Source: an uncultured virus (IMG/VR IMGVR_UViG_3300048926_000230)
Lineage: Duplodnaviria; Heunggongvirae; Uroviricota; Caudoviricetes
DNA: 64,000 nucleotides
Direction: 5' to 3' (one strand)
Virus record (IMG/VR): IMGVR_UViG_3300048926_000230
Span: 1-64,000 of that record
The translations under genes and the position numbers were made by a program. The stretch's first letter is position 1; each line of letters begins with the position of its first letter. Positions 1,736 through 64,000 of the stretch are shown here, one piece after another. The notes below the pieces were generated by a model. The model saw only the letters and a program-made list of their open reading frames with translations. It did not search any database and was not told the DNA's origin.

Positions 1736-3301
1736 TCAACCGTCGAGCTCTCCGGCGTCCAGCGCGTCCTTGACTTCCTGCGCGTGCGCGACCTCTTCGG
1801 CCGAGTAGCGGATGAACAGCGCGACGGCGCCCACCAGGACGGCCACCGCGGCCACCCACAACAGACCGTAGGTGTAACCCTGGTCCAGCGCGTGGTGTTG
1901 GGCGGCGTCCATGTTCTTGACCGGGCCGGTGGTACCGCCCAGGTAGAGGGTGCGCGAGGTGATCACGGCCTGGATGATCGCGAGCACGACCGGCCCGCCG
2001 AGGTTCTGCAGCATCAGGGCGATCGCCGAGACCGGACCGATCTCGTCGAAACCGACACCGGCAATGGCCGAGACGGTCAGCGGGACGACGATCATGCCGA
2101 TCCCGAAACCGCCGACCGTGATGGGCAGCACCAGGTTCGGGAAGTACGGGATACCGGCATTGAGCGTCGAGCCGTAGATCATGGCACCGAGCACCAGCAC
2201 ACCACCGGAGATGACCAGCCAGCGCGGCGCGAACTTGGACACCAGCACCGAGGAGACGCCGAGTCCGATACCGAGCGCGATGACGAACGGGATGAAACCG
2301 ATACCCGCCTTGAGCGCGCTGTAGCCCATGATGTCCTGCACGTACAGGCCGATCAGCACGGTCAGCGTGAACATCACACCGCCGGCCAGGAACACCGCGG
2401 CCAGGGTCGCGACACGGTTGCGGTCCCGGAACAGCGAGAACGGCACGACGGGGTTCTCCGCGGAGCGCTCCACATAGAAGAAGGCGAAGCCGAACAGCAC
2501 CGCGCCGGCGCCGGAGGCCAGGGTGAGCGGCGACAGCCAGCCCTGCTCCGGGCCCATCGAGAAGCCGAAGACCGCGGCGGTGCACGCCAGGGTGGCCAGG
2601 ATGGCACCGGCGGCATCCAGCTTCATCCGAGCGCGGTCGGTCTCCTTGAGGGTGGTGTGCGCCAGGTAGAGCATCACCAGGCCGATGGGGATGTTGACCA
2701 GGAACGCCAGCCGCCAGGACACCTCGGTGAGTGCCCCACCGACCACCAGACCCATCACCGAGCCGACGCCCGTCATGGCGGCGAACACGGCGGTCGCGGC
2801 GTTGCGGGCCGGACCCTTGGGGAAGGTGGTGGCGACCAGCGCGAGCCCGGTCGGTGAGGCGATGGCCGAGCCGACACCCTGCAGCAGGCGGGCGATGACC
2901 AGGGTGGCCTCGTCCCAGGCCACACCGCACAGCACCGAGGCGATGGTGAACAGCGCGACGCCGACGATGAAGGTGCGCTTGCGCCCGATGGTGTCGCCGA
3001 GGCGGCCGCCGAGGAGCATCAGTCCACCGAAGGTCAGCACGTAGGCGGTGATCACCCAGCTGCGGCCGGCATCCGAGAGCCCGAGTTCGTCCTGGATCTT
3101 GGGCAGAGCGACGATCGCGACGGTGCTGTCCATCGTGGCCAGCAGCTGCATGCCGCCGATGGCGATGACCGCGGCGATGAAGTTCCAGGACGGCAGCCAG
3201 GCCGGAAGCCGACCGCCGCGCTGCGCCCCGTCATGCTCGATGCGAACAGGCAGCGCGCGGTTGTTCCCGCGCGCTCGCTCTGCGTCGTTGAGAGCCGTCA
3301 T
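1736..3301 (-). CDS. efpA: MFS efflux pump EfpA
   Basis: MTALND...FIAAVIAIGGMQLLATMDSTVAIVALPKIQ...AHAQEVKDALDAGEL matches the mycobacterial EfpA sequence as I recall it. Start placed at ATG 3301 rather than 3364. Confidence 0.9.
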   Translation of the reverse strand: MTALNDAERARGNNRALPVRIEHDGAQRGGRLPAWLPSWNFIAAVIAIGGMQLLATMDSTVAIVALPKIQDELGLSDAGRSWVITAYVLTFGGLMLLGGRLGDTIGRKRTFIVGVALFTIASVLCGVAWDEATLVIARLLQGVGSAIASPTGLALVATTFPKGPARNAATAVFAAMTGVGSVMGLVVGGALTEVSWRLAFLVNIPIGLVMLYLAHTTLKETDRARMKLDAAGAILATLACTAAVFGFSMGPEQGWLSPLTLASGAGAVLFGFAFFYVERSAENPVVPFSLFRDRNRVATLAAVFLAGGVMFTLTVLIGLYVQDIMGYSALKAGIGFIPFVIALGIGLGVSSVLVSKFAPRWLVISGGVLVLGAMIYGSTLNAGIPYFPNLVLPITVGGFGIGMIVVPLTVSAIAGVGFDEIGPVSAIALMLQNLGGPVVLAIIQAVITSRTLYLGGTTGPVKNMDAAQHHALDQGYTYGLLWVAAVAVLVGAVALFIRYSAEEVAHAQEVKDALDAGELDG

Positions 3302-3308
3302 ACGGGTT

Positions 3309-3314
3309 ACCTTA
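3309..3314 (-). promoter_or_regulatory. Probable -10 hexamer (TAAGGT) of a leaderless efpA transcript
   Basis: TAnnnT hexamer 7 nt upstream of the ATG at 3301, with no RBS. Confidence 0.5.
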
Positions 3315-3895
3315 CAGGTACCCGGTAGGTAAGCGTTATGCCTGACCTCGAACAATGAGGTCACAAACGAGCGCTAAAGCGCTAGGTATCTTAGAGTTCA
3401 GCTAACCCTGGGAAACATGGCAAATCGCCACTGGAGGGCGATCCCCTCCGCTCCCATGTCACCACCCCGGAAAAGGCCTCGACTCCCTCAGCGTGGCGCC
3501 TAGGCCTACTTTTGAAGGTTTAGGCAGGTTTAGCCGATTCCCCTAAATCTGGTCCGGAGCGCGGCTTGGGCCGAAAATCGTAGACCCTTTCGGCACTACT
3601 TGAAACTAAGAATTCAATAAGGAACCCGCACACCCCCCTTTCAGCCATCGGCGCGTGGCCAGTAGCGTCCGTCGAGGACAGGGTGAAACACCTACTAGAG
3701 CGAGCCTGCGAGCGACCGGGGTTCACGCCCCGGTGCCCAACCACCACTGAAGTCTCGCCCCGTTACGTCACGTTGTGGGTCGGCTGTGGGGTCGTCACCT
3801 AAGTCGGGTACGGCACTAGAAGCCGGGAGTCTGTCGAAAATCGGGAGAGCCATGAGTTGGAGCTACCGCGCCAAGCGACGGTGGCAAGAAATCTT

Positions 3896-42117: not shown

Positions 42118-42630
42118 CTACTTGTGAAATGCGAGGTAGGCGATCAGTCCGCGAAGCTTCTCGACGCTGTCGTTGACGCCGCCAAGAGCGACATTGCATC
42201 CGTTGCAGAGCAGCGATCTAACGCATTTGCCGCACGACTTCTGGCCGGGGCAGCACGCGTGGTCGTGATCGACGTCGAGGCTGCGCCTATCGGGCCCGCT
42301 AGAGCAGGTCGGATTTGCGCATACGCCGCCTTGCTGTTCGAGCATGGCGATGTAATCCGCTTCGGTGATCCGATACTTGCTCTTCAGATAGTCGTTGCGG
42401 CGCTGTGATTTTCGATACCCTGACCCGCGCGGGGAAGCCGCGTACTGGCGCTGCCGATCCTTGATGCGGTCACTATTGGCTTGGTAGTAACTTTTCTGAT
42501 ACAGAGAGCTGCACGCTTTACACCAGTGCTGCAGGCCATCGTGCGTGCTGCGGTTCTTGCCGAACTGATCTAGCGATTTTTCGGTCTTACACTTTGTGCA
42601 TGCCTTCAGTGGATGTCTACACTTTCCCAA
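42118..42630 (-). CDS. Endonuclease VII-family (His-Me finger) free-standing endonuclease; start uncertain
   Basis: CTKC...WCKAC; KYRITEADYIAMLEQQGGVCA...VDHDH...VRSLLCNGCNVALG. Confidence 0.85.
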   Translation of the reverse strand: MGKCRHPLKACTKCKTEKSLDQFGKNRSTHDGLQHWCKACSSLYQKSYYQANSDRIKDRQRQYAASPRGSGYRKSQRRNDYLKSKYRITEADYIAMLEQQGGVCANPTCSSGPDRRSLDVDHDHACCPGQKSCGKCVRSLLCNGCNVALGGVNDSVEKLRGLIAYLAFHK

Positions 42631-42651
42631 TAGGGCTGCAGGGCTGTGGAG

Positions 42652-42692
42652 CCCGCGGTGGTGGACACAGCCCATAGGCCCACCACCGCGGG
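42652..42692 (-). terminator. Hairpin after the major tail gene
   Basis: CCCGCGGTGGTGG/CCACCACCGCGGG 13-bp stem; no U-tract. Confidence 0.5.
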
Positions 42693-46478: not shown

Positions 46479-47192
46479 CTACCGAGGGTCACTCTCGACC
46501 CTCTCGAAATCGTTGATCATGGGGCTGTAGATGTCTTTCAGCCGCTTTCTGTCGTCAGTTCTCAGGTGCGTGCGGTGCTCCAGGCGGACATCCCACAAAG
46601 GCTCAGCGGGAAGCGCTTTCGGGCCGGCAAGGAATTCACGCTTGCCGTCGACCGGGGCGGTGACGACGAAGTGCGCCTGCTCGATCCGAATGCCGGGGAT
46701 GGCGCGGAACAGGCACCGCAGCGGATGCTGGGCGTAGCTGGAGGCTTCGCGCTGCCAAAGCATCACCTCGGCGGCGTGTGCGTCAGTGGCCGCCAGTCGA
46801 GACTTGGTGTCCGCGGGTACATCGGAGATGATCTCATCGGCGTCAACCCGGAAAAACCAGTCGCCCGGCTGCGCAAACGTCATGCCGAGCTGGAACATGA
46901 AGTCCCGCTTGGCAACTTCGCCACCCCACTCGTCCCCCCACCAGACCTTGCGCGACTGATGGATGGTGCAACCGATGCCGGCGCCCGCGGCCGTGCGCAG
47001 GATCGCGTCAGCCTGGTCGGTGCCGCTCGCCGGCTGCATCATGGCACCCGGGAAGCCCGCATACGGGCCGTCAACGGCGATGATGTGGTCGGCCAGTCGC
47101 GCGGTAGCGGCAACGCACTCGGCGAGCCAGGTGGGGCTCTCCTCGTACCAGTTCAGCAGTGCAATTATGGCCATGCGGCCACCCGAAGACAC
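46479..47192 (-). CDS. Glycosyltransferase (GT2-like)
   Basis: LLNWYEE...IIAVDG...WFFRVDADE (DxD). Confidence 0.75.
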   Translation of the reverse strand: MSSGGRMAIIALLNWYEESPTWLAECVAATARLADHIIAVDGPYAGFPGAMMQPASGTDQADAILRTAAGAGIGCTIHQSRKVWWGDEWGGEVAKRDFMFQLGMTFAQPGDWFFRVDADEIISDVPADTKSRLAATDAHAAEVMLWQREASSYAQHPLRCLFRAIPGIRIEQAHFVVTAPVDGKREFLAGPKALPAEPLWDVRLEHRTHLRTDDRKRLKDIYSPMINDFERVESDPR

Positions 47193-47392
47193 ACGGTCGG
47201 GAGGATGCGGGGCGGGTCGGTGAGCGTTCGTGCGTATTCGATACCGGTGATCCGGTATCTACCGCCGTCAATCTCGACGACCTCTCCAATGTTCAAAACC
47301 GCATCTTCATAGGGAAGCTGGCGAGTGTCCACCGCGGCGACGCGGCCCCGGCCGGTGATTGTGAACCAATCGTCGGCTGCTAGAAATTTCAC
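47165..47392 (-). CDS. Stand-alone EF-Tu domain II-like protein
   Basis: DDWFTITGRGRVA...LNIGEVVEIDG...ITGIEYARTLTD versus the EF-Tu pattern EDVFTITGRGTVV...INVNEEVEIVG...VTGVEMFRKLLD. Confidence 0.65.
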   Translation of the reverse strand: MKFLAADDWFTITGRGRVAAVDTRQLPYEDAVLNIGEVVEIDGGRYRITGIEYARTLTDPPRILPTVCLRVAAWP

Positions 47393-47580
47393 GCTGGCCT
47401 CACCCTCCCTACGGGTACGCACACCGTCTGGTGGGGCGCCAAACGCTCAGTGCCGCTGCCGTAGTCGGCCTCGGGGTCGATAGCCACGGTGCAACGCGCC
47501 CAGCCGTGGTCGATCCGCTCGACGTGGCCACGAAGGTCTTCGCCATCGAAGTCGACAATGACGTCGTCGCCGGGATTCAT
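47389..47580 (-). CDS. Small SH3-like hypothetical protein
   Basis: PGDDVIVDFDG..RGHVERID; coupled on both sides. Confidence 0.6.
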   Translation of the reverse strand: MNPGDDVIVDFDGEDLRGHVERIDHGWARCTVAIDPEADYGSGTERLAPHQTVCVPVGRVRPA

Positions 47581-48800
47581 CGTCGCCCCAATCGCTTAAC
47601 GGTCACGCCATCCCGATCCGGAATGACGCCGAAGGGGTCGACCACAACCGAGCCCTCGGGGAACTCCAGCGAGCGATACCGCTCATTGTTGGTGGCCAAG
47701 AAGTACACAGCCTTGTACATGTAATCCACATCGTTGACGTGCAGGAACTGCTCGCCAGACTGGCGGAGGATATCGGCCATCAGCATTGCCGCGCTGCCGG
47801 TTTCGATGTCGGTCTCGGGCTTGAAGGCCGTTCCGAGCACGATGAGTGGCAGATCATGCTTCTCGGCGTAGTAGGAGGCGACCTCGGCGTGCCAGGCCTC
47901 ATACTCCTGGCGGGCGTGCATCAGCGCGTCCCAGATGTTGAAGGACATGTCAACCTCTTCGGCGAGCCAGGACAGCGCGATATTGTCGCGCGGGTGGCAG
48001 CCGCCACCGTCGGACATGCCGGCATCCATGTAGCGGCTCGACAGTAGCCGGCGGTCGGCGAGATCCCAGGCTGCCTTCATGTCGTCGAAATTCATGCCCA
48101 TGCGCTCGCACATCTCGCCCCAGCAGTTGGCGATGACCGTCTTGGCGGTGATCCACGTGTTGTACGAGACCTTGATTCCCTCGGCCGTCGTCACGCCGGT
48201 GCGGATGCACGGGGCATCATTGATCGTGGCGTAGAACTCCTCCAGGAGATCCGCGGCCTCGTCGCTGCAGACGCCGATCAGGTTGAACTCCGGGTGTAGG
48301 TAGTCCTGCAGGACGGTGCCCATCGCGATGAACTGCGGGGTGTAGACATAGTCGACGAAATCGTTGAGTAGCGGGGCGATCTCGCGGGAGAACGTGCCGG
48401 GCAGGCAGGTGGAGATGACCGCGACAGTCTTGCGCACGCCCAGCCGCTCGCACGCCGCGGCGACGGCGGCCACGCCCTCCTTCAGAAAGGTGTAGTCGAA
48501 ATCCTCTCTGGCGTCGGGCATGATCGTGGCGCCCTCAAATTCCGGCGCGTGCGGGGTCTGGATGGCGACGAAGATGATGTCCGAGTCGGCAACTACCTCG
48601 TCGACGGTGTCGTGCCACTGGATGTCATGATTGTCGAGCAGCGGCTGCAGCCCCTCCTCGCGGAACGGGATGAAGCGCGACTCCAGGTAAGTCTTGACGT
48701 CAGGATTGGCGTCGGTTCCGCAGACGGTGTGGCCGCGGCGTTCGATGGCTAGTGCGACCGGCAAGCCGAGCTTGCCCAGTCCGACATGACCAATTCTCAA
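47577..48800 (-). CDS. UDP-glucose/GDP-mannose dehydrogenase family protein
   Basis: Rossmann GLGKLG, FVAIQTP, AEGIKVSYN, catalytic GGGCHPRD, AFKPETD. Confidence 0.9.
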   Translation of the reverse strand: MRIGHVGLGKLGLPVALAIERRGHTVCGTDANPDVKTYLESRFIPFREEGLQPLLDNHDIQWHDTVDEVVADSDIIFVAIQTPHAPEFEGATIMPDAREDFDYTFLKEGVAAVAAACERLGVRKTVAVISTCLPGTFSREIAPLLNDFVDYVYTPQFIAMGTVLQDYLHPEFNLIGVCSDEAADLLEEFYATINDAPCIRTGVTTAEGIKVSYNTWITAKTVIANCWGEMCERMGMNFDDMKAAWDLADRRLLSSRYMDAGMSDGGGCHPRDNIALSWLAEEVDMSFNIWDALMHARQEYEAWHAEVASYYAEKHDLPLIVLGTAFKPETDIETGSAAMLMADILRQSGEQFLHVNDVDYMYKAVYFLATNNERYRSLEFPEGSVVVDPFGVIPDRDGVTVKRLGRR

Positions 48801-48818
48801 AGTGTTCCCCTTTGGTGG

Positions 48819-49376
48819 TTAGTCGAGTAGTGCTGCGATGTTTCGCTCGGATGTGTTGCCGCCGTTGCAGTGCACTGCGGCAAATGCTTCAGCGAGCGCC
48901 TCTGGCGCGTTGAAATGGCCGTCCTTAAACGAGTAGCGGGCCAACTCGTCGTAGTCGACGGCGTCCGTCCATGTGAGATCGATCAGCGCGCGCGACGGTG
49001 CGTCACCGCGATTAGCGTCGAGGATGTGCGCGGCCTCGTGGTAGGTGACGAACTCCATTGGCGTGCAGGACACGGTCCGCGGGTGGAAGTGACTCGCCTC
49101 GTCGTTGGCCATGGACTTCTCGAACGCGGCGCGATCCGCCAGAAATGTCGAGTTGAAGGTGATTACCCCACCGCCGGCCTGTGCGTAGATGTCATTGAGT
49201 GGCTCGGAGTCGATCTTGACGTCCCGCAACTCCGGGTATTTCACGGCGAGTTTGTCTATGGCGCCGTCAATCTCGGCGGAGAGCGTCGGGTCGGCGCCCT
49301 GACTGAGCTTGGTCTCGCCACATGCGGCAAGGGTGGCAACGATAACCGCGGCGGAGGCGAGATATTTGATGAGAAT
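48819..49376 (-). CDS. Lipoprotein with zinc-metallopeptidase-like motif (probable ATT start)
   Basis: Frame extends upstream of GTG 49244 to ILIKYLASAAVIVATLAACG (lipobox); HEAAH...EALAEAF; AGGAG 8 nt before ATT. Confidence 0.65.
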   Translation of the reverse strand: MLIKYLASAAVIVATLAACGETKLSQGADPTLSAEIDGAIDKLAVKYPELRDVKIDSEPLNDIYAQAGGGVITFNSTFLADRAAFEKSMANDEASHFHPRTVSCTPMEFVTYHEAAHILDANRGDAPSRALIDLTWTDAVDYDELARYSFKDGHFNAPEALAEAFAAVHCNGGNTSERNIAALLD

Positions 49377-49387
49377 GGGCTGTTCTC

Positions 49388-49933
49388 CTAGCGCCCGTAT
49401 GTCAAGCTGTTCCCCGGGCTGAAGAAGTAGTGGTAGAGCGTCTGATCGATGTAATGCTCGGTCTTTGGCGAGACCTGGTCGGCCCAGCGCTTGTCCTCCC
49501 CATAGCCGCCGTTAAAACGTCCCTGTCGGGCGATCTCGGTGCGAATCGGGTTGAGGTGGCTGACATTCCGGTAGTAACCGTTAGCGTCGTCGGACCACTC
49601 GTCGTACTCAAGCGAGTGATAGGTGGGCTTCTGGCGCGCTCCGTCGATGTAGAGCTGAAGCTGGAAGCCGATATAGTCGACACCGTCGAGAAGCGGGTAG
49701 ATGGCGTCGACGTAGTTGCCGGCGACCATGTCGTCATCGTCGATGAAGTTGAAGTACTCCCCCGAGGCGTTGTCCAGGCACCACTGCCGTTTCTCGGCGA
49801 CGGTTCCCGGCATGTTGCAGGTCATCAGCTCGATGTCCGAGCGAGCCTGAATCTGTGGAGTGAGGGTGTTCATGAGCCGGGCGTACTCGTGGCGGCGCTC
49901 AGGGACTGTGAGGACCGCTATCGTCCACTTCAC
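49388..49933 (-). CDS. Glycosyltransferase family 2
   Basis: WTIAVLTVPER...AEKRQWCLDNASGEYFNFIDDDD...YGEDKRW. Confidence 0.8.
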   Translation of the reverse strand: MKWTIAVLTVPERRHEYARLMNTLTPQIQARSDIELMTCNMPGTVAEKRQWCLDNASGEYFNFIDDDDMVAGNYVDAIYPLLDGVDYIGFQLQLYIDGARQKPTYHSLEYDEWSDDANGYYRNVSHLNPIRTEIARQGRFNGGYGEDKRWADQVSPKTEHYIDQTLYHYFFSPGNSLTYGR

Positions 49934-50622
49934 TGCATGACCTCCTGCAGTTTCGCCGCGGTGTCGCGAATGAGCGCCTGCACTTCGGCGCCGTAGTACA
50001 GCTCGTCCGGCCGGCACTCCTGGTGGCGGGCCAGGCGCTCGCTGGTGTTCTGATCGATCTCCGCCTTGCCCACGATGTAGTGCATGTGCTCGGTGTAGAT
50101 GTCGATCTCCAGGTGGCGGCCAATGAGTTTGGAGACGTCGTTAAGGAACGTGTCGTTGAAATCGCTGACGAACAGCGGCGGGAAAAGGAACCCGGCGGTC
50201 TCGACCCACTTGCGATGGATGAAGCCGTGCGTCCCAAAGTTGTTGCCGTCCTGGTATCCGTCGCGCCCGAAGGCGAACAGGATCTTGTCCGGGTAGGCAT
50301 CGAACGTCTCGCGCACAACGTCGTCCCAGCCGGGCGTGCGAAACACGATGTCGTCGCCGCAGTGCATGATGATGTCCGCGCGCGACGCGTCGAAGCACAG
50401 ATTCCACATCGCCGAGAGGTTCACGAGATTATCGCGCTCTCGGGGGCCACGGACCTGCACCCATTTGATGTCGATCTGCAGGTCGTCGTATGAATGGTCA
50501 TCAGAGTCGATGTACGTCACGATCCGGATGTTTTCCGGGTGCGACGCCGTGGCGTTGATGGAATCAACCAAGCGGCTCAACTGATTCGGCCGCTGGCGGG
50601 TTGGGAGGAGGAGGTCAATCAA
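49930..50622 (-). CDS. Glycosyltransferase family 2-like
   Basis: LLLPTRQRP...YIDSDD...IMHCGDDIVF...HMHY. Confidence 0.8.
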   Translation of the reverse strand: MIDLLLPTRQRPNQLSRLVDSINATASHPENIRIVTYIDSDDHSYDDLQIDIKWVQVRGPRERDNLVNLSAMWNLCFDASRADIIMHCGDDIVFRTPGWDDVVRETFDAYPDKILFAFGRDGYQDGNNFGTHGFIHRKWVETAGFLFPPLFVSDFNDTFLNDVSKLIGRHLEIDIYTEHMHYIVGKAEIDQNTSERLARHQECRPDELYYGAEVQALIRDTAAKLQEVMQ

Positions 50623-50749
50623 GGACGGGGACCGCCTTGATGCGCATTTCAGCCTGCTCTTCAGCGGGGCGGTCAGCCATCTCCATGCAGAGGCGCTGGA
50701 AGCGCTCGGCGACGGCAACGGGCTCCCCGCGGTCGGTGAGGACATGCAT
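50615..50749 (-). CDS. 44-aa hypothetical protein heading the glycosyltransferase operon
   Basis: GGAGG RBS; MHVLTDRGEPVAVAERFQRL...; overlaps the GT start. Confidence 0.5.
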   Translation of the reverse strand: MHVLTDRGEPVAVAERFQRLCMEMADRPAEEQAEMRIKAVPVLD

Positions 50750-50763
50750 GAAACCTCCAATTT

Positions 50764-55975: not shown

Positions 55976-56175
55976 TCAGCCACCACAATCTGCTTTGGCG
56001 ACTTCTTAGGCGGGTCGACAGCCAAGCCGACGACGAACAGCAAGATGCCGCCGATAATGAAGGCCAGCCAGGGCGCCAGGAGGTAGCAGCCCGTGGTCAC
56101 CGCGGCGACGCCGGCGAGTTCGAATAGCCCGGAAAGAATTGGGCGATAGTCAATCTGCCGAGAAGGCTCGGTCAA
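55972..56175 (-). CDS. Small membrane protein between terminase and portal
   Basis: Two TM segments; coupled on both sides. Confidence 0.65.
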   Translation of the reverse strand: MTEPSRQIDYRPILSGLFELAGVAAVTTGCYLLAPWLAFIIGGILLFVVGLAVDPPKKSPKQIVVAE

Positions 56176-57788
56176 TTTTCCTCCTCGTCATAGAGCCAGG
56201 CGTCGAAGTTCTCGTCGCCCCAGCTATCGATTTCTTCGTCGGTTGCGGTGTAGATGAATGCCTCGACCGGCCTGGCGCCGTGGGCGATTACCGCCCAGCG
56301 GGCGAGAGTGATGGCCATTAGGCGGGAGTACGAGGCGTCGTCGACCTCGTCGTCCCACACGAACCCGCCGCTCGGCAGGTCGCGCTTGATGGCGTTAGAG
56401 ACTGAACTGGTGAGACGTGGGTCGTTGCCGTGGGAGATAACGGGAATACCCGCCGCGAATACGTCATTGAGCAAACCGCCGCAGCCCTGCGCCTCCTCCG
56501 TGATGGAGGGAACGATGGGCTCCACGCCAATGGCGCGGATGTCGGGCAGGATGTCGCTAGCCGCGCCGCGGCCGACGATGATCGCCGCCACGTCCCACGA
56601 CGTGATGATCTCCAAGAAGTACTTGAGGACGACGTCGGCGGGCTCAGTGCCCGAATAGCCAACCTCCATATGGATTCGGTTGATGACCGTCTGGGAGTCC
56701 TCGTTGAACTCCTCAGTGCGCCACGCCGCGGCAATCGTCCACGGACCGCCCTCAGGGGCCCGGTAGATCGCGACCACGGGGCGACCGGTGAAGATCGGCT
56801 CCAGGTCGATCAGAGCCTCCCAGCGCGCGCGCGGGATCTCAGAGCGGCCGTCACCAAAGGCTGGCCAGTCGCCGACGCCGAGTCGGTCAACGCCGAAGTC
56901 GCGAAGGTTCGCGACCATCTCCTGGTACTCGTCGGCGATCTTGTCCTCGGTCTGGCGATATCCCAAGCCGGGGTTGGCCATTGCCCAGTACTTGCGCTCG
57001 CCGAACTTCTTCGGGTCGAGGTCGTCGGGGGCGGACCACTCCAGGAAACAGAGACGGTTGCGCTCGCCGGACTCCAGTTGCTGGAGCGCGCGGTAACGGA
57101 CGCCGCCGAAGGTTCCGCAGTGCGGGTGGGTGCGCTGATCCGCCGCGGTGCCGGTGTAGATCACCTGCGGGTTGGGCCGGGCCGACACGGTAGGCAGTAG
57201 GGCCTTCAGCGATCCCGGGGTGATGTGCATGGCCTCGTCGAGGATCAGGCGGTCAGCGGTCAAGCCGATGCCCGAGCGGTCCGTACGGGTTTGGAACATG
57301 ATCTTGGCGCCCGGGTTGGGGCCATCCAGGATCTCGATGCTCTCGGCGCCGTGGGCCTGCTTCGCCTTGTACTTCAAGCCGGACTTGGCGAGCAGCGATT
57401 CGAGACGCTCCATCGCGTTGACGGCGGTCTTGAACTCGTGGGCGGAGTGGATGATGAGGCGCTCACCGAACAGGATCAGGCCGGCCAGCTCCAGGGCTTC
57501 GAGGATCGAGCCCTTCCCGTTCTGACGCGAAACCACAAGGCCCACAGAGAAGGCGGCCCACTTGGCAACCAAGTCACCGGTGTCGAGTTCGACGAACTCG
57601 TCGGTTTCCTTCAGGGCCTCGTGTACGGCGAGTTCCTGCCACGGGTCGAGGAATAGGCCGCAATCCGCGGCGAGGTCAATAGCGTCCTGGCCAGAGGAGG
57701 AATTAGCTTCCGGGGCTAGCCAGATCCTTGGTTCCTGAATTCCTCTTAGCGGCAAGTCGTTCGGCGCGCTTAACAGCGAGCTGGTCAT
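56172..57788 (-). CDS. terL: Terminase large subunit
   Basis: Walker A VSRQNGKG, Walker B LILDEA, coupling motif YTGTA, WAMANPGLG. Confidence 0.92.
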   Translation of the reverse strand: MTSSLLSAPNDLPLRGIQEPRIWLAPEANSSSGQDAIDLAADCGLFLDPWQELAVHEALKETDEFVELDTGDLVAKWAAFSVGLVVSRQNGKGSILEALELAGLILFGERLIIHSAHEFKTAVNAMERLESLLAKSGLKYKAKQAHGAESIEILDGPNPGAKIMFQTRTDRSGIGLTADRLILDEAMHITPGSLKALLPTVSARPNPQVIYTGTAADQRTHPHCGTFGGVRYRALQQLESGERNRLCFLEWSAPDDLDPKKFGERKYWAMANPGLGYRQTEDKIADEYQEMVANLRDFGVDRLGVGDWPAFGDGRSEIPRARWEALIDLEPIFTGRPVVAIYRAPEGGPWTIAAAWRTEEFNEDSQTVINRIHMEVGYSGTEPADVVLKYFLEIITSWDVAAIIVGRGAASDILPDIRAIGVEPIVPSITEEAQGCGGLLNDVFAAGIPVISHGNDPRLTSSVSNAIKRDLPSGGFVWDDEVDDASYSRLMAITLARWAVIAHGARPVEAFIYTATDEEIDSWGDENFDAWLYDEEEN

Positions 57789-58098
57789 GTGAGGACTTCT
57801 CTCCGGATGATGCCTCCGGCAATTCGGAAATGCCCATCTTGGCGAGAATTGTCGTGAAGGCGCTTAGTAGTTGGCGGTGCTCGGAGATCAGCGGGTTGGC
57901 CGTCTCGGTGCCCTGCCCATTGATGACGGTGAGCCGGGGGTCGAGCTGGAATTCCGCGTCGATCCGGTCCAGCGTGTCCGCCATGCGGGCGACGTTGAGG
58001 CACTGAGCCCTATGGATTGCGTCGACTGGGCGCCCCTTGATGAGGGCCTCGTACACCGCCCGGCCGCGCTCGGCGAGGACGTCGTCGAAGTCCATCAA
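57703..58098 (-). CDS. terS: Terminase small subunit (P27-like)
   Basis: VARMADTLDRI...GTETANPLISEHRQ...LAKMGI. Confidence 0.75.
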   Translation of the reverse strand: MMDFDDVLAERGRAVYEALIKGRPVDAIHRAQCLNVARMADTLDRIDAEFQLDPRLTVINGQGTETANPLISEHRQLLSAFTTILAKMGISELPEASSGEKSSHDQLAVKRAERLAAKRNSGTKDLASPGS

Positions 58099-58448
58099 TC
58101 CGAGAAGCTTTCCGACCAGGCCACATGGTCGGCGGACACGTGCACGCGCTCGCCACTCCAGCCGTCAAGCCAGTGGTTGCCCTTTCGTCGGGCACACTCG
58201 GAAACACGCCCACCGGCCACGGTGATCGTCGCACCGCACGCGGCGCCGGGCTCCTCATTGGGTTCGAGCTGCTCCGGATGGCTGGGTAGTTGTCCTCGCA
58301 AGTAGGCCAGCCAGCGCGTGTCATCCTCGGCTCGAATTGCTTCAGCTACATCGAGACTCGTGACATTTCCCTCGCCATACACTGCGATGAGTTCGTCGAT
58401 GACGCGGCGAACTTGGGCATCACGGTCGGGAATGGTGATGGGGCACAT
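58095..58448 (-). CDS. Phage hypothetical protein
   Basis: RBS aaggagg; coupled to terS. Confidence 0.6.
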   Translation of the reverse strand: MCPITIPDRDAQVRRVIDELIAVYGEGNVTSLDVAEAIRAEDDTRWLAYLRGQLPSHPEQLEPNEEPGAACGATITVAGGRVSECARRKGNHWLDGWSGERVHVSADHVAWSESFSD

Positions 58449-58566: not shown

Positions 58567-59538
58567 TTAAAGGGCCCACTTGTAATCCCTGTTGAGCTTG
58601 TCGATCTTCTGCTGCAACTCCTCCACGGGCGTTGCGTTGAAGGTTTGGTAGAGGTACGGGTGTTTGGAGGCCGCCAGCATCGGGCGCAGTTCCTCCAGGC
58701 GCTCGGGAGTCGCATCAACGCCGTCGAGGACCAGAACGTCAGCCATCAGGCCGACGCCGGAGTACTTGGAGTTGGCCAGGAACAGGATCTCGCCGCCCGA
58801 GCGCAAGAACTTGATGCGCTCATTGCTGTGGGCGGTGAAGATGCGAATGTCATCCTCGATCCAGCGCTTCCCGATATCCTTCTGGACGTCAAGGGCTTTC
58901 CCGAATCGGCTGGCGATGTATACAACTCGCTTGCCGTCCATGGCGTGCGAGATCATCGCCTCGATCAGTCGTTCGGTCTTGTCGAGTCCGGTGACGGTGA
59001 TCTCTTGAATGCCGTCGGTACCCGAGTCGTTCCACGTGCCGCTGGCTACTAGCGCCGGGAAGTTGGCGATACCCTCAGGCGCGTTGATGGTGAATTGCTG
59101 CGCATCCACCGCGGCGATAGAGCCACCGCCATTGGGCGAGATCGTGATGAAAGGCTTCTGCGGCGTGGTGGACAGATGCCAGCCACGCTCCTTGAGGACC
59201 GCCAGCAGCTCTTCAGCCGTCGCAGTACGGGCGTCGACGACGGGCTCAGGCTCCGGGAGCGGTTCGGCCAGATCCTCGTCGAGGAAAACTGGCTCATGAT
59301 CCGCGGGCGCCGGCTCGCGGAAGACCTTCACCGAGCGCGCGAACACCGTCATCGTGACGGTGGCGCACTTACTCTTGCTTCCAACCCCTTGGACGGTGAT
59401 GTTCGCGTCCTCGGGCAAGAGGACTTCCATGCCGTTGATGCGAAGGTTCGTCGCCTTAACGGGAACGGCCTCGGCGAAGTCCCGGCGGTGGGTCTCGTAG
59501 ATCTCGATATCGAGCGGAGTGAATTGGTCAAGCGGCAC
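58567..59538 (-). CDS. Protein with C-terminal degenerate terminase-ATPase-like domain
   Basis: C-terminal ~100 aa align with TerL (SGVGLMADVLVLDG versus SGIGLTADRLILDE). Confidence 0.65.
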   Translation of the reverse strand: MPLDQFTPLDIEIYETHRRDFAEAVPVKATNLRINGMEVLLPEDANITVQGVGSKSKCATVTMTVFARSVKVFREPAPADHEPVFLDEDLAEPLPEPEPVVDARTATAEELLAVLKERGWHLSTTPQKPFITISPNGGGSIAAVDAQQFTINAPEGIANFPALVASGTWNDSGTDGIQEITVTGLDKTERLIEAMISHAMDGKRVVYIASRFGKALDVQKDIGKRWIEDDIRIFTAHSNERIKFLRSGGEILFLANSKYSGVGLMADVLVLDGVDATPERLEELRPMLAASKHPYLYQTFNATPVEELQQKIDKLNRDYKWAL

Positions 59539-59550
59539 TAGGTGTTCCCC

Positions 59551-59961
59551 CTATTGCTGGTTCACCGCCGCCATGAAGACTGGCCAGGGCATCGCTGGCG
59601 TATATGGCGCGTCGGCTTTTGAGGTATCTGTGGGCGCGTAGGCGCGGTCGTTGAGCCCCTCGCCACGCATGCGGTTGCATTCGGCGTGGAGGAGGCGATC
59701 TGGCGGGAGCACGGGCTCACCGCGGCGCAGAGACTCCGCGCGAGACATCTTGGAGTGATCGCCCTGAAGGACGCCATTGCCCCGCCGGCCGGGGTCGGAC
59801 TTGTCGTAGTCGTAGTTCAGCGTGGCGTCGAGCCACATGGGCCGGCCACACCACGGCATCGGGCACGGTGACCCGTCCTTGAAAACGGATCGCAGGTAAG
59901 CCACCGCTTGCTGGTGCCGCCAGCCGAGGCCCTTCTCGGTCGTTGTTTTCTTAGCTGCCAT
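59551..59961 (-). CDS. Packaging-associated HNH endonuclease
   Basis: GLGWRHQ...CPMPWCGRPM...GDHS...DRLLHAECNRMRG; first gene upstream of the terminase block. Confidence 0.8.
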   Translation of the reverse strand: MAAKKTTTEKGLGWRHQQAVAYLRSVFKDGSPCPMPWCGRPMWLDATLNYDYDKSDPGRRGNGVLQGDHSKMSRAESLRRGEPVLPPDRLLHAECNRMRGEGLNDRAYAPTDTSKADAPYTPAMPWPVFMAAVNQQ

Positions 59962-60114
59962 GGCTAGATGCCCGTCAGTTACGGGCCCCGCACGAGCAGC
60001 AGATCCCGCCGATGTGCGTTGTGTACTGGGTGCAATACAGGCAGAGCTTGAAATCGCGCACGTTGCGTTCCTTATTTTTCGAATATTTGCTGAGGCGCCA
60101 TCAACGGCGAAAAT

Positions 60115-60170
60115 GTCTCATTATTGAGATAAATCTCTTACCCGCGGGACTTGTGCGGTAGAATCCTGCA
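60115..60170 (+). promoter_or_regulatory. Phage promoter class A, copy 4 (-10 TAGAAT at 60159)
   Basis: gtctcattattgagat / ctcttacccgcgggac / gcggtagaatcctgca at 20-bp period. Confidence 0.7.
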
Positions 60171-60189
60171 TATGCGCAGGTCAGACGCG

Positions 60190-60295
60190 ACTTTTCTGGG
60201 AAAAACCAACGGGGGGAGAAATACCGCTGACGATCTCAGCGTACGTATGTTCGCTGAACTTTTGACCCACCCCCGGGGGTGCCTGGTGCCCACGC
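60190..60295. other. Probable cos / packaging-site region
   Basis: Non-coding, at the switch of gene orientation upstream of HNH-terS-terL; minus strand has CCCCCGGGGGTGGGTCAAAA...TTTCTCCCCCC, typical of cohesive-end regions. Exact cut site not determinable. Confidence 0.55.
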
Positions 60296-60389
60296 TGGCG
60301 CCTGTGTGGGCGTGTGTGCAGCTCCGTTGTGGGTGGTCTGTTACGTCACGTGACGCTCCACGAGAGCTGTGCGAGGTTCTAGTTAGGTA

Positions 60390-60418
60390 TTGACAACTAT
60401 CGAGAATGGCTGTAGTGT
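60390..60418 (+). promoter_or_regulatory. SigA-type promoter (class B)
   Basis: TTGACA-17 bp-TAGTGT; leaderless 37-aa ORF at 60426-60539. Confidence 0.7.
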
Positions 60419-60574
60419 AATGAACATGAATAAGAGCACCTGCAATGCAGAGACATGGGATGGCAATGTGGACGATCCGTCCTATGCATACTGCGACCTG
60501 CCTCACGCACACGCTGGTGATCATCACTACGCGCTCTAGCTCATGAACAAATCACACACAGATGGGAATCACTA

Positions 60575-60811
60575 ATGCTCACACGTATCGCACTGGCATC
60601 CATCGCCATGGCGGCCGGCATGTATGGCGCACCTACCGCATATGCACAGCCTGTGCATGACTCTGCAACCGTCACTGTCGATGGTGTCGACTACCCGGTG
60701 TGCGCAGAGGAGGATTGCTCCGACCAACCGGGACAGATCGGTGTGTGGACCAATTCAGAAGGTGATCGGTATCTGTCGCTTGGTGAGTACAGCCTCTACG
60801 TCAATCCCTGA
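60575..60811 (+). CDS. Small secreted phage protein
   Basis: Signal peptide ending AYA; PVCAEEDCSDQPGQIGVW. Confidence 0.65.
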   Translation: MLTRIALASIAMAAGMYGAPTAYAQPVHDSATVTVDGVDYPVCAEEDCSDQPGQIGVWTNSEGDRYLSLGEYSLYVNP

Positions 60812-61236
60812 TACGCGCGATTCTGCGCAGAGATGAGTTAGTGAGAATGTCCTACTTTGACGATCTGACACCTGGTCAATCCGTCACCTACTGCGAACGG
60901 TCGGCCGTATTCGTTGCACACCACTACTCCGGTGATGGGTACGTCATCGAATATGCGGACGGCACGCTGGCGACCGTCTACGCGCTGGTGGTGAAGCGAT
61001 GAGTGCAGAGCGCGCCCGTAGGGCGGACAAGATCGCCGCGAAGTTCGAAAAGCAGGGCGATATGAGCAGCGCCGGTTACTGGCGCCAGAAGGCGGAGAAC
61101 TACCGGAAACTGGTCGTCGCACGTGAGGTTGTCGAGAGCTGGAGTAACGCATGATCCGCGCAATGGTCGCTTCGGTCATCTTCGCCGCGATTATGGCCGA
61201 GAGCTTCAATATGGCCGCAACCCTGTTGGTGGCGCG

Positions 61237-61506
61237 ATGAATGCCCGTCACGCCCTGGCGATGCTCGACGCGAATTGGCTAGACCATCTCGCCGCGATGC
61301 CTGCCGAGGAATTGCAGCGGCTACAGCGTGAGCTGCTTTCCATGTCGCGACACCCGTCGCTGGCCCTCAACGCTCCAGCTCGGCTCATTGCCGGCGAGCG
61401 GATGAAGGACGTCGATGAGGAGATAGCGCGGCGATTCTCGGCCATCTGGGGACACGCGGACAATGACGCGCTATCCCTCCAGATGTACCGAATTACCCGT
61501 TCATAG
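61237..61506 (+). CDS. Phage hypothetical protein
   Basis: ORF ends just before the next promoter. Confidence 0.5.
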   Translation: MNARHALAMLDANWLDHLAAMPAEELQRLQRELLSMSRHPSLALNAPARLIAGERMKDVDEEIARRFSAIWGHADNDALSLQMYRITRS

Positions 61507-61509
61507 TTG

Positions 61510-61538
61510 TTGACAACTACCGTCAATCGGGATAGAGT
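61510..61538 (+). promoter_or_regulatory. SigA-type promoter (class B), leaderless to 61545
   Basis: TTGACA-17 bp-TAGAGT-6 nt-ATG; TAGTTG/CAACTA inverted repeat around the -35. Confidence 0.75.
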
Positions 61539-61544
61539 AAGAGC

Positions 61545-62045
61545 ATGACGAACACAGAACGCGCAATCGAACTCTCCGGCGCTGATATCGATGCCATTGT
61601 GGCCGGTTACCTGGAATGCCAGTTGTGGGCCGGACTGGACTATGGACACACGGGTTGTGATGACAATGCGGAATGCAGAAACTCCGCAGACCCGGAACCG
61701 CACCCTTACGATGACAACTACTCGGTTGAGAATATCTCCCCCGAATACGTCGCCAAGGTTCGCGAAGAACTGTCAGACGTTGTCACGGCGCACCCGCTTG
61801 CGGTGCGGATGTATCTTGCACACCGTTCTACCAGAGAGCGCGTAGCGGCCGGTTTCAACAGGGTTGACGCTGTAATCACGTCGGAATACTTCGGCCATGA
61901 CTTCTATCTGACCCGGGAACATCACGGCGTCGGATTCTGGGACCGTGGACTGGGTGAGCTTGGCGAGTATCTGACCAAAATCGCGAAGTCTTACGGTTCC
62001 GCCGAAACGCTCTGGGACAACGGGGACGGAGTGCTCAATGCTTGA
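61545..62045 (+). CDS. Conserved phage protein with GHDFYLTR..HGVGFWDR motif
   Basis: Motif widespread in phage genome-end genes; function unknown to me. Confidence 0.75.
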   Translation: MTNTERAIELSGADIDAIVAGYLECQLWAGLDYGHTGCDDNAECRNSADPEPHPYDDNYSVENISPEYVAKVREELSDVVTAHPLAVRMYLAHRSTRERVAAGFNRVDAVITSEYFGHDFYLTREHHGVGFWDRGLGELGEYLTKIAKSYGSAETLWDNGDGVLNA

Positions 62046-62853
62046 TGCCGACTCCGACGCTGAGCTTATCCGTCTAGCGCGCAGGCATCCGCGGGATATG
62101 GATGTCCGCGCCGAATTGTGGGACCGCGCCGATATGGACGCTGAATACTGCGGCAGTTCGCAGCTCGCCGCAGATCTGACCCAGATGGGAATCAACCGGC
62201 CGACCATTGTTCACGCGTCGACCGAAGCACTCACCGACCGTTATCGCAAGCGGTACGAGAACTAAGGACAGGGACAATGAGCATTCACGGCATCGAAGCG
62301 CTACTCGCAGAAGCGGCAACAATAGCGAATGACAATCCCGAAGATGAGGCACAGGGAGCTTGCCAAGTCGTATTGTCAAATGGCGATTCGATCTCGGGTC
62401 GAATTGACAACGTAAGTGACGGGATTGCCGTGTTTGGCGAAAACGAACACGATGGAAGGCACCCGAGTTTTCCGCTATTCATTCGAGTGAGTCACGTACT
62501 CACGTTCCAGTACATCTAAAGCCCCCGCCAGAACAGGGAGACAGAGCAATGAGCAAGCAAGCCAATAGCTACCGCAAGGTCTATCCGTCCCGCTGGGATA
62601 TCCGCGCAGAGATGAACGCGCGGGAAATGTCCCGGGGCGCAACCGTGCGGGTGCGTGTTCGATGAGCGCCAGTAAAGCGAAACGTGGTCAGAGGTGTGTG
62701 GTGTATTTAGGTGACGGATCGACCGTTACCGGCACGCTCACCGGATATCGAACCGAGAATGCGGGCAAGTGGAACGTTGCTCGATACAAGCTAATCACGC
62801 TAGACGATGGCACCGAATACGCCACCATATTACCCGCTTACCAAAGGGTCTGA
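62038..62853 (+). other. Short phage hypothetical genes (62038-62265, 62277-62519, 62662-62853)
   Basis: Short ORFs with RBS or coupling. Confidence 0.55.
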
Positions 62854-62854
62854 A

Positions 62855-63460
62855 ATGAACGCATACCGTACCGAGACAGTCGATACCGTGGCCGGTGAGT
62901 ACGTGATCGAATTGCACTACGACGAGGACGCAAGCAATCCCCTCACCGACTGGGACCATCCCGGGATGGCTTTCTGGGTCAACTACGATTCGTCGCGGTT
63001 GGTCGAGACGGACACACTGGACGAACCGCTAGACGAGGCGCCCGCCCGTGTAATGCGCGAATTCGTCCGGCTGGACAGTGACCAGGATGCCGTGATGAAC
63101 CGGTTCAACAAATGGCGCGCGATCACGGGCAGCCCATGGATGCTAGTCGCCGGTGAGGACTTATCGTCGCAGTCCGATTACTACCGGTGGTTCGCCCTAG
63201 TCGACACTCGCGAAGACTTCGGGCCAGACGGTCACGAGGCCGCGGTGCAGCTCACGATGGATGTCTACCGCAGATGGGCCGCTGGCGAGTTCTGCGGGCA
63301 TGTCGTCACCGGTCCGGATGGTCACGAGGTCGATTCGTGCTGGGGTATCGACGATGACGACTACGCACTGAGTGAGGCGCGCGCCACCATTGAGGCAGAT
63401 GTGCCCGAACGTGTCGCAGCGGCAAACCGGGTCGGTAGCGGCTTTGTGGGTGTGCTGTGA
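62855..63460 (+). CDS. Acidic phage hypothetical protein (VDSCWG motif family)
   Basis: YDEDASNPLTDWD...YRRWAAGE...VDSCWGID. Confidence 0.7.
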   Translation: MNAYRTETVDTVAGEYVIELHYDEDASNPLTDWDHPGMAFWVNYDSSRLVETDTLDEPLDEAPARVMREFVRLDSDQDAVMNRFNKWRAITGSPWMLVAGEDLSSQSDYYRWFALVDTREDFGPDGHEAAVQLTMDVYRRWAAGEFCGHVVTGPDGHEVDSCWGIDDDDYALSEARATIEADVPERVAAANRVGSGFVGVL

Positions 63461-63546
63461 GCCTCATTCGCAGATGGATAGCGGCCTACCGGCGCGCGTT
63501 CCCGCCCATTGACAACTCTGACGACCGATTCAACTGGTAGGGACCA

Positions 63547-64000
63547 ATGAACGATCAAACGCTAGTCGCTGATCTGGTAGACCGTGGCGAACCGCTGGCA
63601 GAGTCGCCGGTCGACTGCTACCTAGAGGTGGACCGCGACGACCACAAGGCGATCATTGTGTGGCGCGAACCGCTGGCATTCCATATCGAGTGGAACGGCG
63701 CCCGGTGGTCGGAACATGCCGACAGTGACGGGTGGCTGGCCAGCAGCGCTGAACTTCAGTTCGCGAACCGTCTGACCGACTACCTACGTCGTGCGGGTGT
63801 CGATGATGCCGACGTCTACACAGAGGGATACAACGGTGAGGACGAACCGACACTCACGTTCGAAGTGGTCACGCCGTACCGTGCCGGCGAAACCTTCAAG
63901 TCTTGGTTTGACCGTATCGGCTGGCCTGTCGTCGCGACACTGACCAACGTCACGGACCCGGGCACGTTCATGAGTCCGTACCTGTTCGACATGACATCGC
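63547..64000 (+). CDS. Phage hypothetical protein (partial, runs off window)
   Basis: Open frame from ATG 63547 to the window end. Confidence 0.55.
   Translation, partial: MNDQTLVADLVDRGEPLAESPVDCYLEVDRDDHKAIIVWREPLAFHIEWNGARWSEHADSDGWLASSAELQFANRLTDYLRRAGVDDADVYTEGYNGEDEPTLTFEVVTPYRAGETFKSWFDRIGWPVVATLTNVTDPGTFMSPYLFDMTS

Follow-up and report, generated by a model that had tools for sequence, protein, structure and literature searches.

Short extra copies of the ATPase part of the large terminase subunit (TerL) are already in print, from Cluster J mycobacteriophages (2013), from Rak2-like jumbo phages (2017) and as T4 vs.8 (2026), and in the available portions of those reports they carry no assigned function. 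The accessible text of Pope et al. (2013; PMC3706429) describes Omega gp3 and its relatives as resembling the N-terminal half of terminases, in an unusual arrangement whose role in packaging was unclear, and that of Buttimer et al. (2017; PMC5259590) describes CBB_274 of Rak2-like jumbo phages, and likewise proteins of phiM12 and phiN3, as truncated terminase paralogs, again as something unusual and unexplained. T4 vs.8 is presented in the available sections of Evans et al. (2026; PMC13601566) as a Walker-intact look-alike of the TerL ATPase that is toxic together with EcAvs2. Here we describe a protein, P0001, that is comparable to these and is encoded near one end of a 64,000-nucleotide stretch ("the window", positions 1 to 64,000) of the 71.9-kb IMG/VR virus record IMGVR_UViG_3300048926_000230, from an uncultured member of the Caudoviricetes. 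P0001 is a two-module protein, with a small, beta-rich phrog_9911-type domain and a compact copy of the TerL ATPase core on either side of a disordered, acidic linker, and comparison of its alleles indicates that it is kept under purifying selection even though its ATP site is dead. Its parts, with confidence in the AlphaFold2 (AF2) model given as the predicted local distance difference test score (pLDDT), are these:

58567..59538, minus strand: whole P0001 gene, 323 amino acids plus stop codon, from the list of open reading frames (ORFs) and its translation; small N-terminal beta domain, linker and TerL-like pseudo-ATPase core
59284..59538, minus strand: N-terminal domain, residues 1-85, phrog_9911 type, motif DIEIYE...RINGxE (phrog_9911 E 1.2e-5 over residues 9-72, and 1.1e-7 in a second search)
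59008..59283, minus strand: acidic, proline-rich linker, residues 86-177, with a short helix at 108-117 and disorder at 121-171 (pLDDT <50 over 121-171)
58570..59007, minus strand: C-terminal TerL-like ASCE core, residues 178-323 (PHROG, hhalign, AF2, Foldseek and VIA)
58975..58992, minus strand: vestigial Walker A, T183-G-L-D-K-T188, with a 3-residue deletion in alignment with the family motif G-x-R-Q-[TS]-G-K-T
58720..58734, minus strand: Walker B remnant, L269-V-L-D-G273, catalytic Glu replaced by Gly, aligned with TerL L181-I-L-D-E185

The preliminary description of this DNA had proposed a catalytically disabled relative of the terminase ATPase, fused to other domains and encoded upstream of terS and terL, and on this point sequence, profile and fold agree. 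BLASTP aligned residues 236-302 of P0001 with residues 145-215 of the phage's own (resident) TerL, with 26 of 71 positions identical (E 4e-8). Among PHROG profiles, residues 190-300 matched phrog_6910 (E 1.9e-15, profile positions 14-122 of 125) and phrog_3167 (E 1.3e-5); the match to phrog_7579, labeled 'terminase large subunit', was weak (0.0064), and the resident TerL itself touches phrog_6910 at 0.0041. A profile of a 13-sequence C-domain family aligned with TerL residues 86-254 at an hhalign probability of 95.2% (E 2.7e-8, 143 columns), a span that on TerL runs from the Walker A position to beyond the C-motif.

AF2, working from 25 sequences, predicted residues 178-322 with pLDDT values of 88-97. 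In the comparison with terminase ATPases that the preliminary description had suggested, all 15 Foldseek rows with E <1e-3 among the PDB matches listed were large terminases, with HK97 at the top (6z6d, E 2.7e-5), followed by P74-26, Sf6, D6E and T4 gp17. VIA-align gave Z 13.2 for Sf6 gp2 (root-mean-square deviation 3.5, 135 residues aligned), 12.2 for both P74-26 and D6E, 11.5 for T4 gp17 and 11.0 for HK97; the RecA-like domains of NAT10 and of SF2 helicases scored 10-12.3, near the terminases, and the fold by itself therefore says 'ASCE core', while the specific link to terminases comes from the sequence profiles. A search of the PDB with the family sequence profile found no terminase, only local P-loop similarity to the F1 ATPase alpha subunit (best E 1e-5 over 47 residues); what ties P0001 to terminases is therefore the PHROG matches, hhalign and the fold. 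Like TerL, then, P0001 has a terminase-type ASCE/RecA-like ATPase core: with the HK97/COG4626 type of TerL (HK97 6z6d, Sf6 gp2 4iee, P74-26 4znl, D6E 5oe8, T4 gp17 2o0h) it shares the core fold, the order of the elements and sequence similarity from the P-loop to the C-motif strand. Unlike TerL, it lacks a functional Walker A, the catalytic Glu, a TGS/TGT C-motif, the lid subdomain and the nuclease domain, and it does not serve as the packaging motor.

The changes at the ATP site can be read directly against the resident TerL, which has Walker A SRQNGKGS at residue 87, Walker B LILDE at 181 and the nuclease half, and whose G91, K92, D184 and E185 are invariant in 65 of 65 TerL relatives. P0001 has neither the TerL Walker A pattern (xRQNGK[GST]) nor the Walker B pattern (hhhhDE). 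The first reading of the sequence had found no Walker A at all, which is right in that there is no working P-loop, but a vestige, TGLDKT (residues 183-188), remains: three residues are deleted, an Asp stands at the position of the invariant TerL Gly91, and in the AF2 model about 4 loop residues connect the strand at 178-182 to the helix at 187-200. The proposed change of the Walker B DE to DG is seen in the alignment of LVLDG with TerL LILDE, and the C-motif reads YQTFN rather than TGS or TGT. The Lys and Thr of Walker A survive, as does the Asp of Walker B. The nuclease domain is absent, as had been noted: the protein ends at residue 323, about 25 residues past the C-motif strand, and the structural matches cover the ATPase core only (model residues 165-323).

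The deletion in Walker A is not an assembly error, since it recurs on other records: a second record, of 117.6 kb and rated complete, carries a 100% identical copy of the gene, and a third (L003) carries a 97% identical one, both with the same deletion. In answer to the earlier concern about frameshift or decay, the frame is open in all three alleles, with no frameshifts and no stops. Between P0001 and the 97% allele we counted 18.2 synonymous and 12.8 non-synonymous changes, for a ratio of non-synonymous to synonymous rates (dN/dS) of 0.21 (binomial P 5e-5); the ratio is about 0.2 in each of the three parts of the protein, with 11 changes and P 0.02 in the C-domain alone. Identity to P0004, the closest full-length relative apart from near-identical copies, is 60% in the N-domain (51/85), 42% in the middle (39/92) and 32% in the C-domain (47/146), and the resident TerL is 77% identical (416/538) to P0039, which may be from the P0004 phage; by these values the P0001 gene evolves much faster than terL, yet under constraint. 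The changes between the window and L003 are unevenly placed: the two are identical over 60707-64000, and leftwards of that, starting at 60706 and as far as the L003 contig reaches, there are 42 differences, 31 of which fall in the P0001 gene, a hot spot better read as a mosaic boundary. Gene conversion from terL around residues 259-269 was also considered and was not convincing, the window allele being closer to terL than the L003 allele at four of six differing codons (262, 265, 267, 269) and further from it at two (259, 268).

The core of P0001 belongs to an old actinophage family of mini TerL-like proteins of 100-200 residues (phrog_6910/3167). An exhaustive phmmer search of 1.84 billion representatives (E up to 0.001) returned 29 proteins. 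Two are full-length, P0003 (97% identical) and P0004 (301 residues, 48%), and these alone share the fused architecture; 12 are stand-alone C-domain proteins of 101-204 residues, 12 are stand-alone N-domain proteins of 78-204 residues (two with the domain twice), and three are long proteins, of 943, 1323 and 2582 residues, that match over short stretches. In the phage collection the C-domain family occurs in the mycobacteriophages Bongo, PegLeg, Reindeer, Porky, Dumbo, Bipper, Validus, Nibb, DirkDirk, Ryadel and WXIN and in the Gordonia phage Denise, under the labels 'hypothetical protein', 'AAA-ATPase', 'ASCE ATPase' and 'DNA packing protein'. BFVD adds relatives in Gordonia, Arthrobacter and Rhodococcus phages; its best matches are actinophage proteins of 100-155 residues, led by one of Catdawg (E 1.7e-10, template modeling score by target 0.85), and a 235-residue protein of phage CBB labeled large terminase subunit is also among the BFVD matches of P0001 (E 1.2e-5). 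As for prophage contexts, a profile search of genome contigs found no relative and a word-indexed search returned 5 proteins only. The mini TerL-like proteins (phrog_6910/phrog_3167; Ryadel gp5 and gp6, the 125-residue Catdawg protein, Reindeer gp121, Bipper gp131 'AAA-ATPase' and the 121-residue WXIN protein) have the same domain by profile and by predicted structure. They are stand-alone proteins of 100-205 residues, mostly Walker A-intact, whereas the P0001 core departs from the stand-alone form: it lies within a 323-residue fusion, behind 177 other residues.

This family also bears on whether P0001 is a paralog of the phage's own TerL, as had been claimed. We built a tree of 39 rows, in which the 14 TerL rows fall together in a single clade (100/97) that has the resident TerL deep within it and the phrog_7579 type of Cluster J gp1 as its sister (98/94). 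P0001 and P0003 fall outside the TerL clade, on a long branch (0.99) among the mini proteins, where relations are unresolved. Deep homology thus stands, but the idea of a recent copy does not: by its placement P0001 is an ancient relative of TerL rather than a recent duplicate of the neighboring terL. In the complete 117.6-kb record the only TerL-like matches are TerL and the P0001 gene.

To place the loss of the ATP site within the family, we compared the motifs of 26 mini proteins in an alignment that also included two TerL cores. Nineteen have an intact Walker A, three a degenerate one (by deletion in P0001 and P0003, and as GERQTCKT in L007) and four none, because their sequence starts after the motif (P0009, P0027, Ryadel gp5 and Ryadel gp6); Walker B ends in DD in 15, DE in three, DG in seven (including P0001 and P0003) and DV in one. 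P0004 keeps GKRQTGKT and LVWDD, and the WXIN mini protein keeps GERQTGKT and LVWDD, which places the loss within the P0001/P0003 lineage. The Walker loss is conserved among the three alleles but not across the wider family, in which P0004, WXIN and the majority of mini proteins retain Walker A. Losses of this kind also occurred in other members, and the ATP site has thus been lost repeatedly.

Several smaller observations concern related motifs. In the 205-residue mini protein of L007 (696-1313), a Cys replaces the P-loop Gly before the Lys; here Walker A degenerated independently, in the slot that P0001 occupies in the window. In Ryadel (L002, 4944-5792), genes 6 and 5 lie next to each other and to two DNA methyltransferase genes; both encode mini TerL-like proteins without a P-loop, one with Walker B DE and the other with DG, and the two may form a heterodimer. 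Loss of an arginine finger in P0001 (Val262, Arg in most mini proteins) was rejected as a further lesion: the same column in the 65 TerL relatives has R in 39, L in 24 and I in 2. The resident TerL itself has Ile at this point, residue 174, just before Walker B, and because the column varies, the common 'RG' before Walker B is not an essential arginine finger in TerL of the resident type.

The N-terminal parts of P0001 are unrelated to TerL, as the preliminary description had held: the profile match over residues 9-72 places the N-domain in the phrog_9911 family, and residues 121-171 are predicted to be disordered. The 12 stand-alone N-domain homologs share D10, E12, I13, R33, N35, G36 and T64 with P0001, and linker homologs were found in P0003 and P0004 only. 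AF2 predicts a mostly beta N-domain at a pLDDT of about 60-75 (60 when the domain is modeled alone); a wide comparison with the PDB gave a maximum Z of 2.2, and an Atlas look-up gave unnamed clusters only, with scores <=0.82, so that no fold could be assigned to this domain. The protein as a whole has no Pfam, NCBIfam or PADLOC match.

The genes downstream and upstream of P0001 make up the packaging cassette:

59551..59961, minus strand: HNH endonuclease, first gene of the packaging cassette (phrog_1808 E 1.6e-29)
58095..58448, minus strand: orphan ORF of 117 amino acids between P0001 and terS (AAGGAGG, a strong ribosome binding site (RBS), 5 nt before ATG)
57703..58098, minus strand: small terminase subunit, terS (phrog_1496 E 3.3e-24)
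56172..57788, minus strand: large terminase TerL (P0002, 538 amino acids), intact (phrog_9 E 2.3e-70 over residues 14-512)

The P0001 gene itself starts with GTG, with an RBS-like GGGGAA 8 nt upstream. A PHROG scan of 43 ORFs gave the order of the minus-strand left arm as HNH, P0001, orphan ORF, terS, terL, small membrane protein, portal, protease and capsid, followed in the window by glycosyltransferases, connectors, tail genes and lysis genes, a left arm usual for such a phage. The host phage of P0001 is a mycobacteriophage: the portal and protease DNA of the window is 72-73% identical to that of Cluster J (Omegavirus) mycobacteriophages such as LittleE and Squint, and the HNH gene is 60-67% identical to those preceding terS in L007, LittleE and WXIN.

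In the sister phages WXIN and L007, a stand-alone mini protein occupies the P0001 slot between HNH and terS. The L007 order is HNH (242-598), the mini protein, terS (1504-1848) and TerL (1853-3439); that of WXIN is HNH, a 154-residue gene, the 121-residue mini protein, a small gene, terS and TerL, and the product of the 154-residue gene shows no relation to the N-terminal region of P0001 (E 1.0). In LittleE the HNH-terS interval contains just two tiny ORFs, and the TerL-like gp1 adjoins gp2, a phrog_9911 protein, at the far left of the genome, four genes before that HNH; the two modules fused in P0001 are therefore neighbors in Cluster J.

This Cluster J arrangement is among the closest of the described systems. 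Omega gp3 and LittleE gp1 (phrog_7579, 'terminase large subunit', 220 residues) represent, like P0001, a second short gene at the left end that resembles the N-terminal half of TerL, and the adjoining LittleE gp2 has the same domain type as the P0001 N-terminus. Unlike P0001, LittleE gp1 keeps Walker A (PRQNGKT) and Walker B (LILDD) and groups as sister to the true TerLs, and the LittleE modules are separate genes in the opposite order, gp2 having what look like two tandem copies of the P0001-type N-domain. The RefSeq label of LittleE gene 2 (L001, 13321-13842), 'enoyl-CoA-hydratase', looks wrong, because the product matches phrog_9911 over its full length (E 2.7e-120). T4 vs.8 and CBB_274 can be likened to P0001 by the descriptions in the available parts of the two papers (PMC13601566, PMC5259590), as extra copies of the ATPase part of TerL only; according to the same descriptions they belong to other phage lineages with a T4 gp17-like TerL, and vs.8 keeps Walker A and B.

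Against this background, three things about P0001 are new: the fusion of a TerL-like core to the phrog_9911 domain that Cluster J encodes next to a TerL-like gene; the natural contrast between a Walker-intact and a P-loop-deleted version in the same HNH-terS slot of close relatives; and the evidence that selection maintains the dead version. In combination they point to a role in binding. Tentatively, we infer that P0001 is a non-catalytic accessory or regulatory binding partner of the packaging-initiation machinery (TerL, TerS and HNH), a possible role that we consider the likeliest of those weighed here and give some credence; an earlier suggestion, that it is a regulator of packaging, fits the gene's position. 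P0001 would then work through binding rather than ATP hydrolysis, with TerL, TerS or the HNH protein as its probable partner during assembly of the packaging complex. Most plausibly, the TerL-like core would dock on a surface that TerL ATPase domains normally offer each other or TerS, and the N-terminal domain would supply a second contact. The locus is a useful handle on a modest question, not a new kind of system, and it names concrete partners and phages for tests.

Several observations weigh against a packaging role. The N-domain was found in one of the eight other records searched (LittleE) and in none of WXIN, Ryadel, Reindeer, L007, L008, L009 and L010, of which L007 and L009 are fragments. 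The Reindeer mini gene lies outside the packaging module, among RtcB, lipoprotein, HNH and methyltransferase genes, and the two Ryadel mini genes are in a small-gene operon beside DNA methyltransferases; because members from other clusters lie outside packaging modules, the family as a whole need not serve packaging. Finally, the low C-domain identity to P0004 compared with that of the N-domain, together with the long branch, could also reflect a relaxation of constraint once the ATP site was lost.

An unlikely alternative is a function unrelated to the phage's own packaging, either as a nucleic-acid or replication/recombination helper, in the manner of other stripped RecA-like cores, or as a weapon that poisons the terminase rings of competing phages. 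The position of family members of other clusters among non-structural genes is consistent with it, as are the labels of some BFVD relatives (one 'Replication-associated protein', several 'AAA-ATPase') and the closeness of the SF2 helicase and NAT10 RecA-like domains (Z 10-12.3) to the terminases (Z 11-13.2) in the structural comparison. However, all four Omegavirus-like lineages examined (the window/L004, L007, WXIN and LittleE) carry the gene at the left end, in one cassette and on one strand with HNH, terS and TerL, and the sequence profiles tie P0001 specifically to TerL.

It is somewhat less probable that P0001 is a dispensable relic, the inactive remnant of a once-active mini ATPase that is disappearing and serves no present function. 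Such a relic would account for the deleted Walker A and the lost Walker B Glu in a protein whose WXIN and P0004 orthologs keep both motifs, for the long branch with its C-domain only 32% identical to that of P0004, and for an HNH-terS slot variable enough to hold two tiny ORFs in LittleE. The dN/dS of 0.21, maintained at about 0.2 in the C-domain alone, argues against it, as do three alleles free of frameshifts and stops, a core modeled at high pLDDT, the retained Walker A Lys and Thr and Walker B Asp, and the persistence of P-loop-less members as whole gene families, for example phrog_6910.

The preliminary description had offered a decoy as one of two readings, and we regard immune evasion of this sort as doubtful. 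Either the TerL-like core would bind host terminase sensors (Avs1-3, Upx) without activating them, or shedding the ATP site would have made an accessory protein invisible to those sensors. According to Evans et al. (2026; PMC13601566), the ATP bound to the terminase and its active site are both contacted by EcAvs2 and SeAvs3, and Upx is modeled as threading unfolded core beta strands regardless of catalysis; this reported grip and modeling lend the idea some support, as do the fast evolution of the P0001 C-domain and the repeated loss of the ATP site (among the 26 mini proteins, Walker A is not intact in 7 and the second acidic residue of Walker B is missing from 8). Yet P0001 lacks the bound ATP, the active-site residues and the nuclease domain that Avs2 and Avs3 are reported to grip, so that tight, non-productive binding is not expected; on that account of the sensor contacts, P0001 may be invisible to Avs2 and Avs3, and tight decoy binding is less likely. 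Moreover, P0001 has no PADLOC match, no anti-defense gene was recognized nearby, and the gene is in the late packaging cassette rather than among early genes. Most improbable, in our view, is the broader proposal that the mini TerL-like proteins mimic the terminase core independently of ATP and have repeatedly discarded the ATP site because host terminase sensors read the ATP-loaded P-loop, P0001 being sensor-invisible or sensor-sponging; if it were true, the occurrence of active and dead versions in a single genomic slot would document a natural arms race with Avs/Upx-type immunity in mycobacteria.

Some further features of the window lie outside these arguments. The orphan ORF (58095-58448) had no match in PHROG, PADLOC or NCBIfam, its longer 207-residue reading had none in Pfam, and tblastn found no counterpart in LittleE, WXIN, L007 or the other related loci compared. 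Beyond the HNH gene, 59962-60575 and 60691-60706 form the strand-switch region, where no ORF is convincing and G+C is lower (0.563 for 60001-62000); this probably represents the end of the genome (cos). An endonuclease VII/HNH-type gene (42118-42675, minus strand), inserted between the genes for the major tail protein and the tail assembly chaperone, is probably a free-standing homing endonuclease like those described for Cluster J, and at 46479-50760 (minus strand) there is an interruption characteristic of Cluster J phages.

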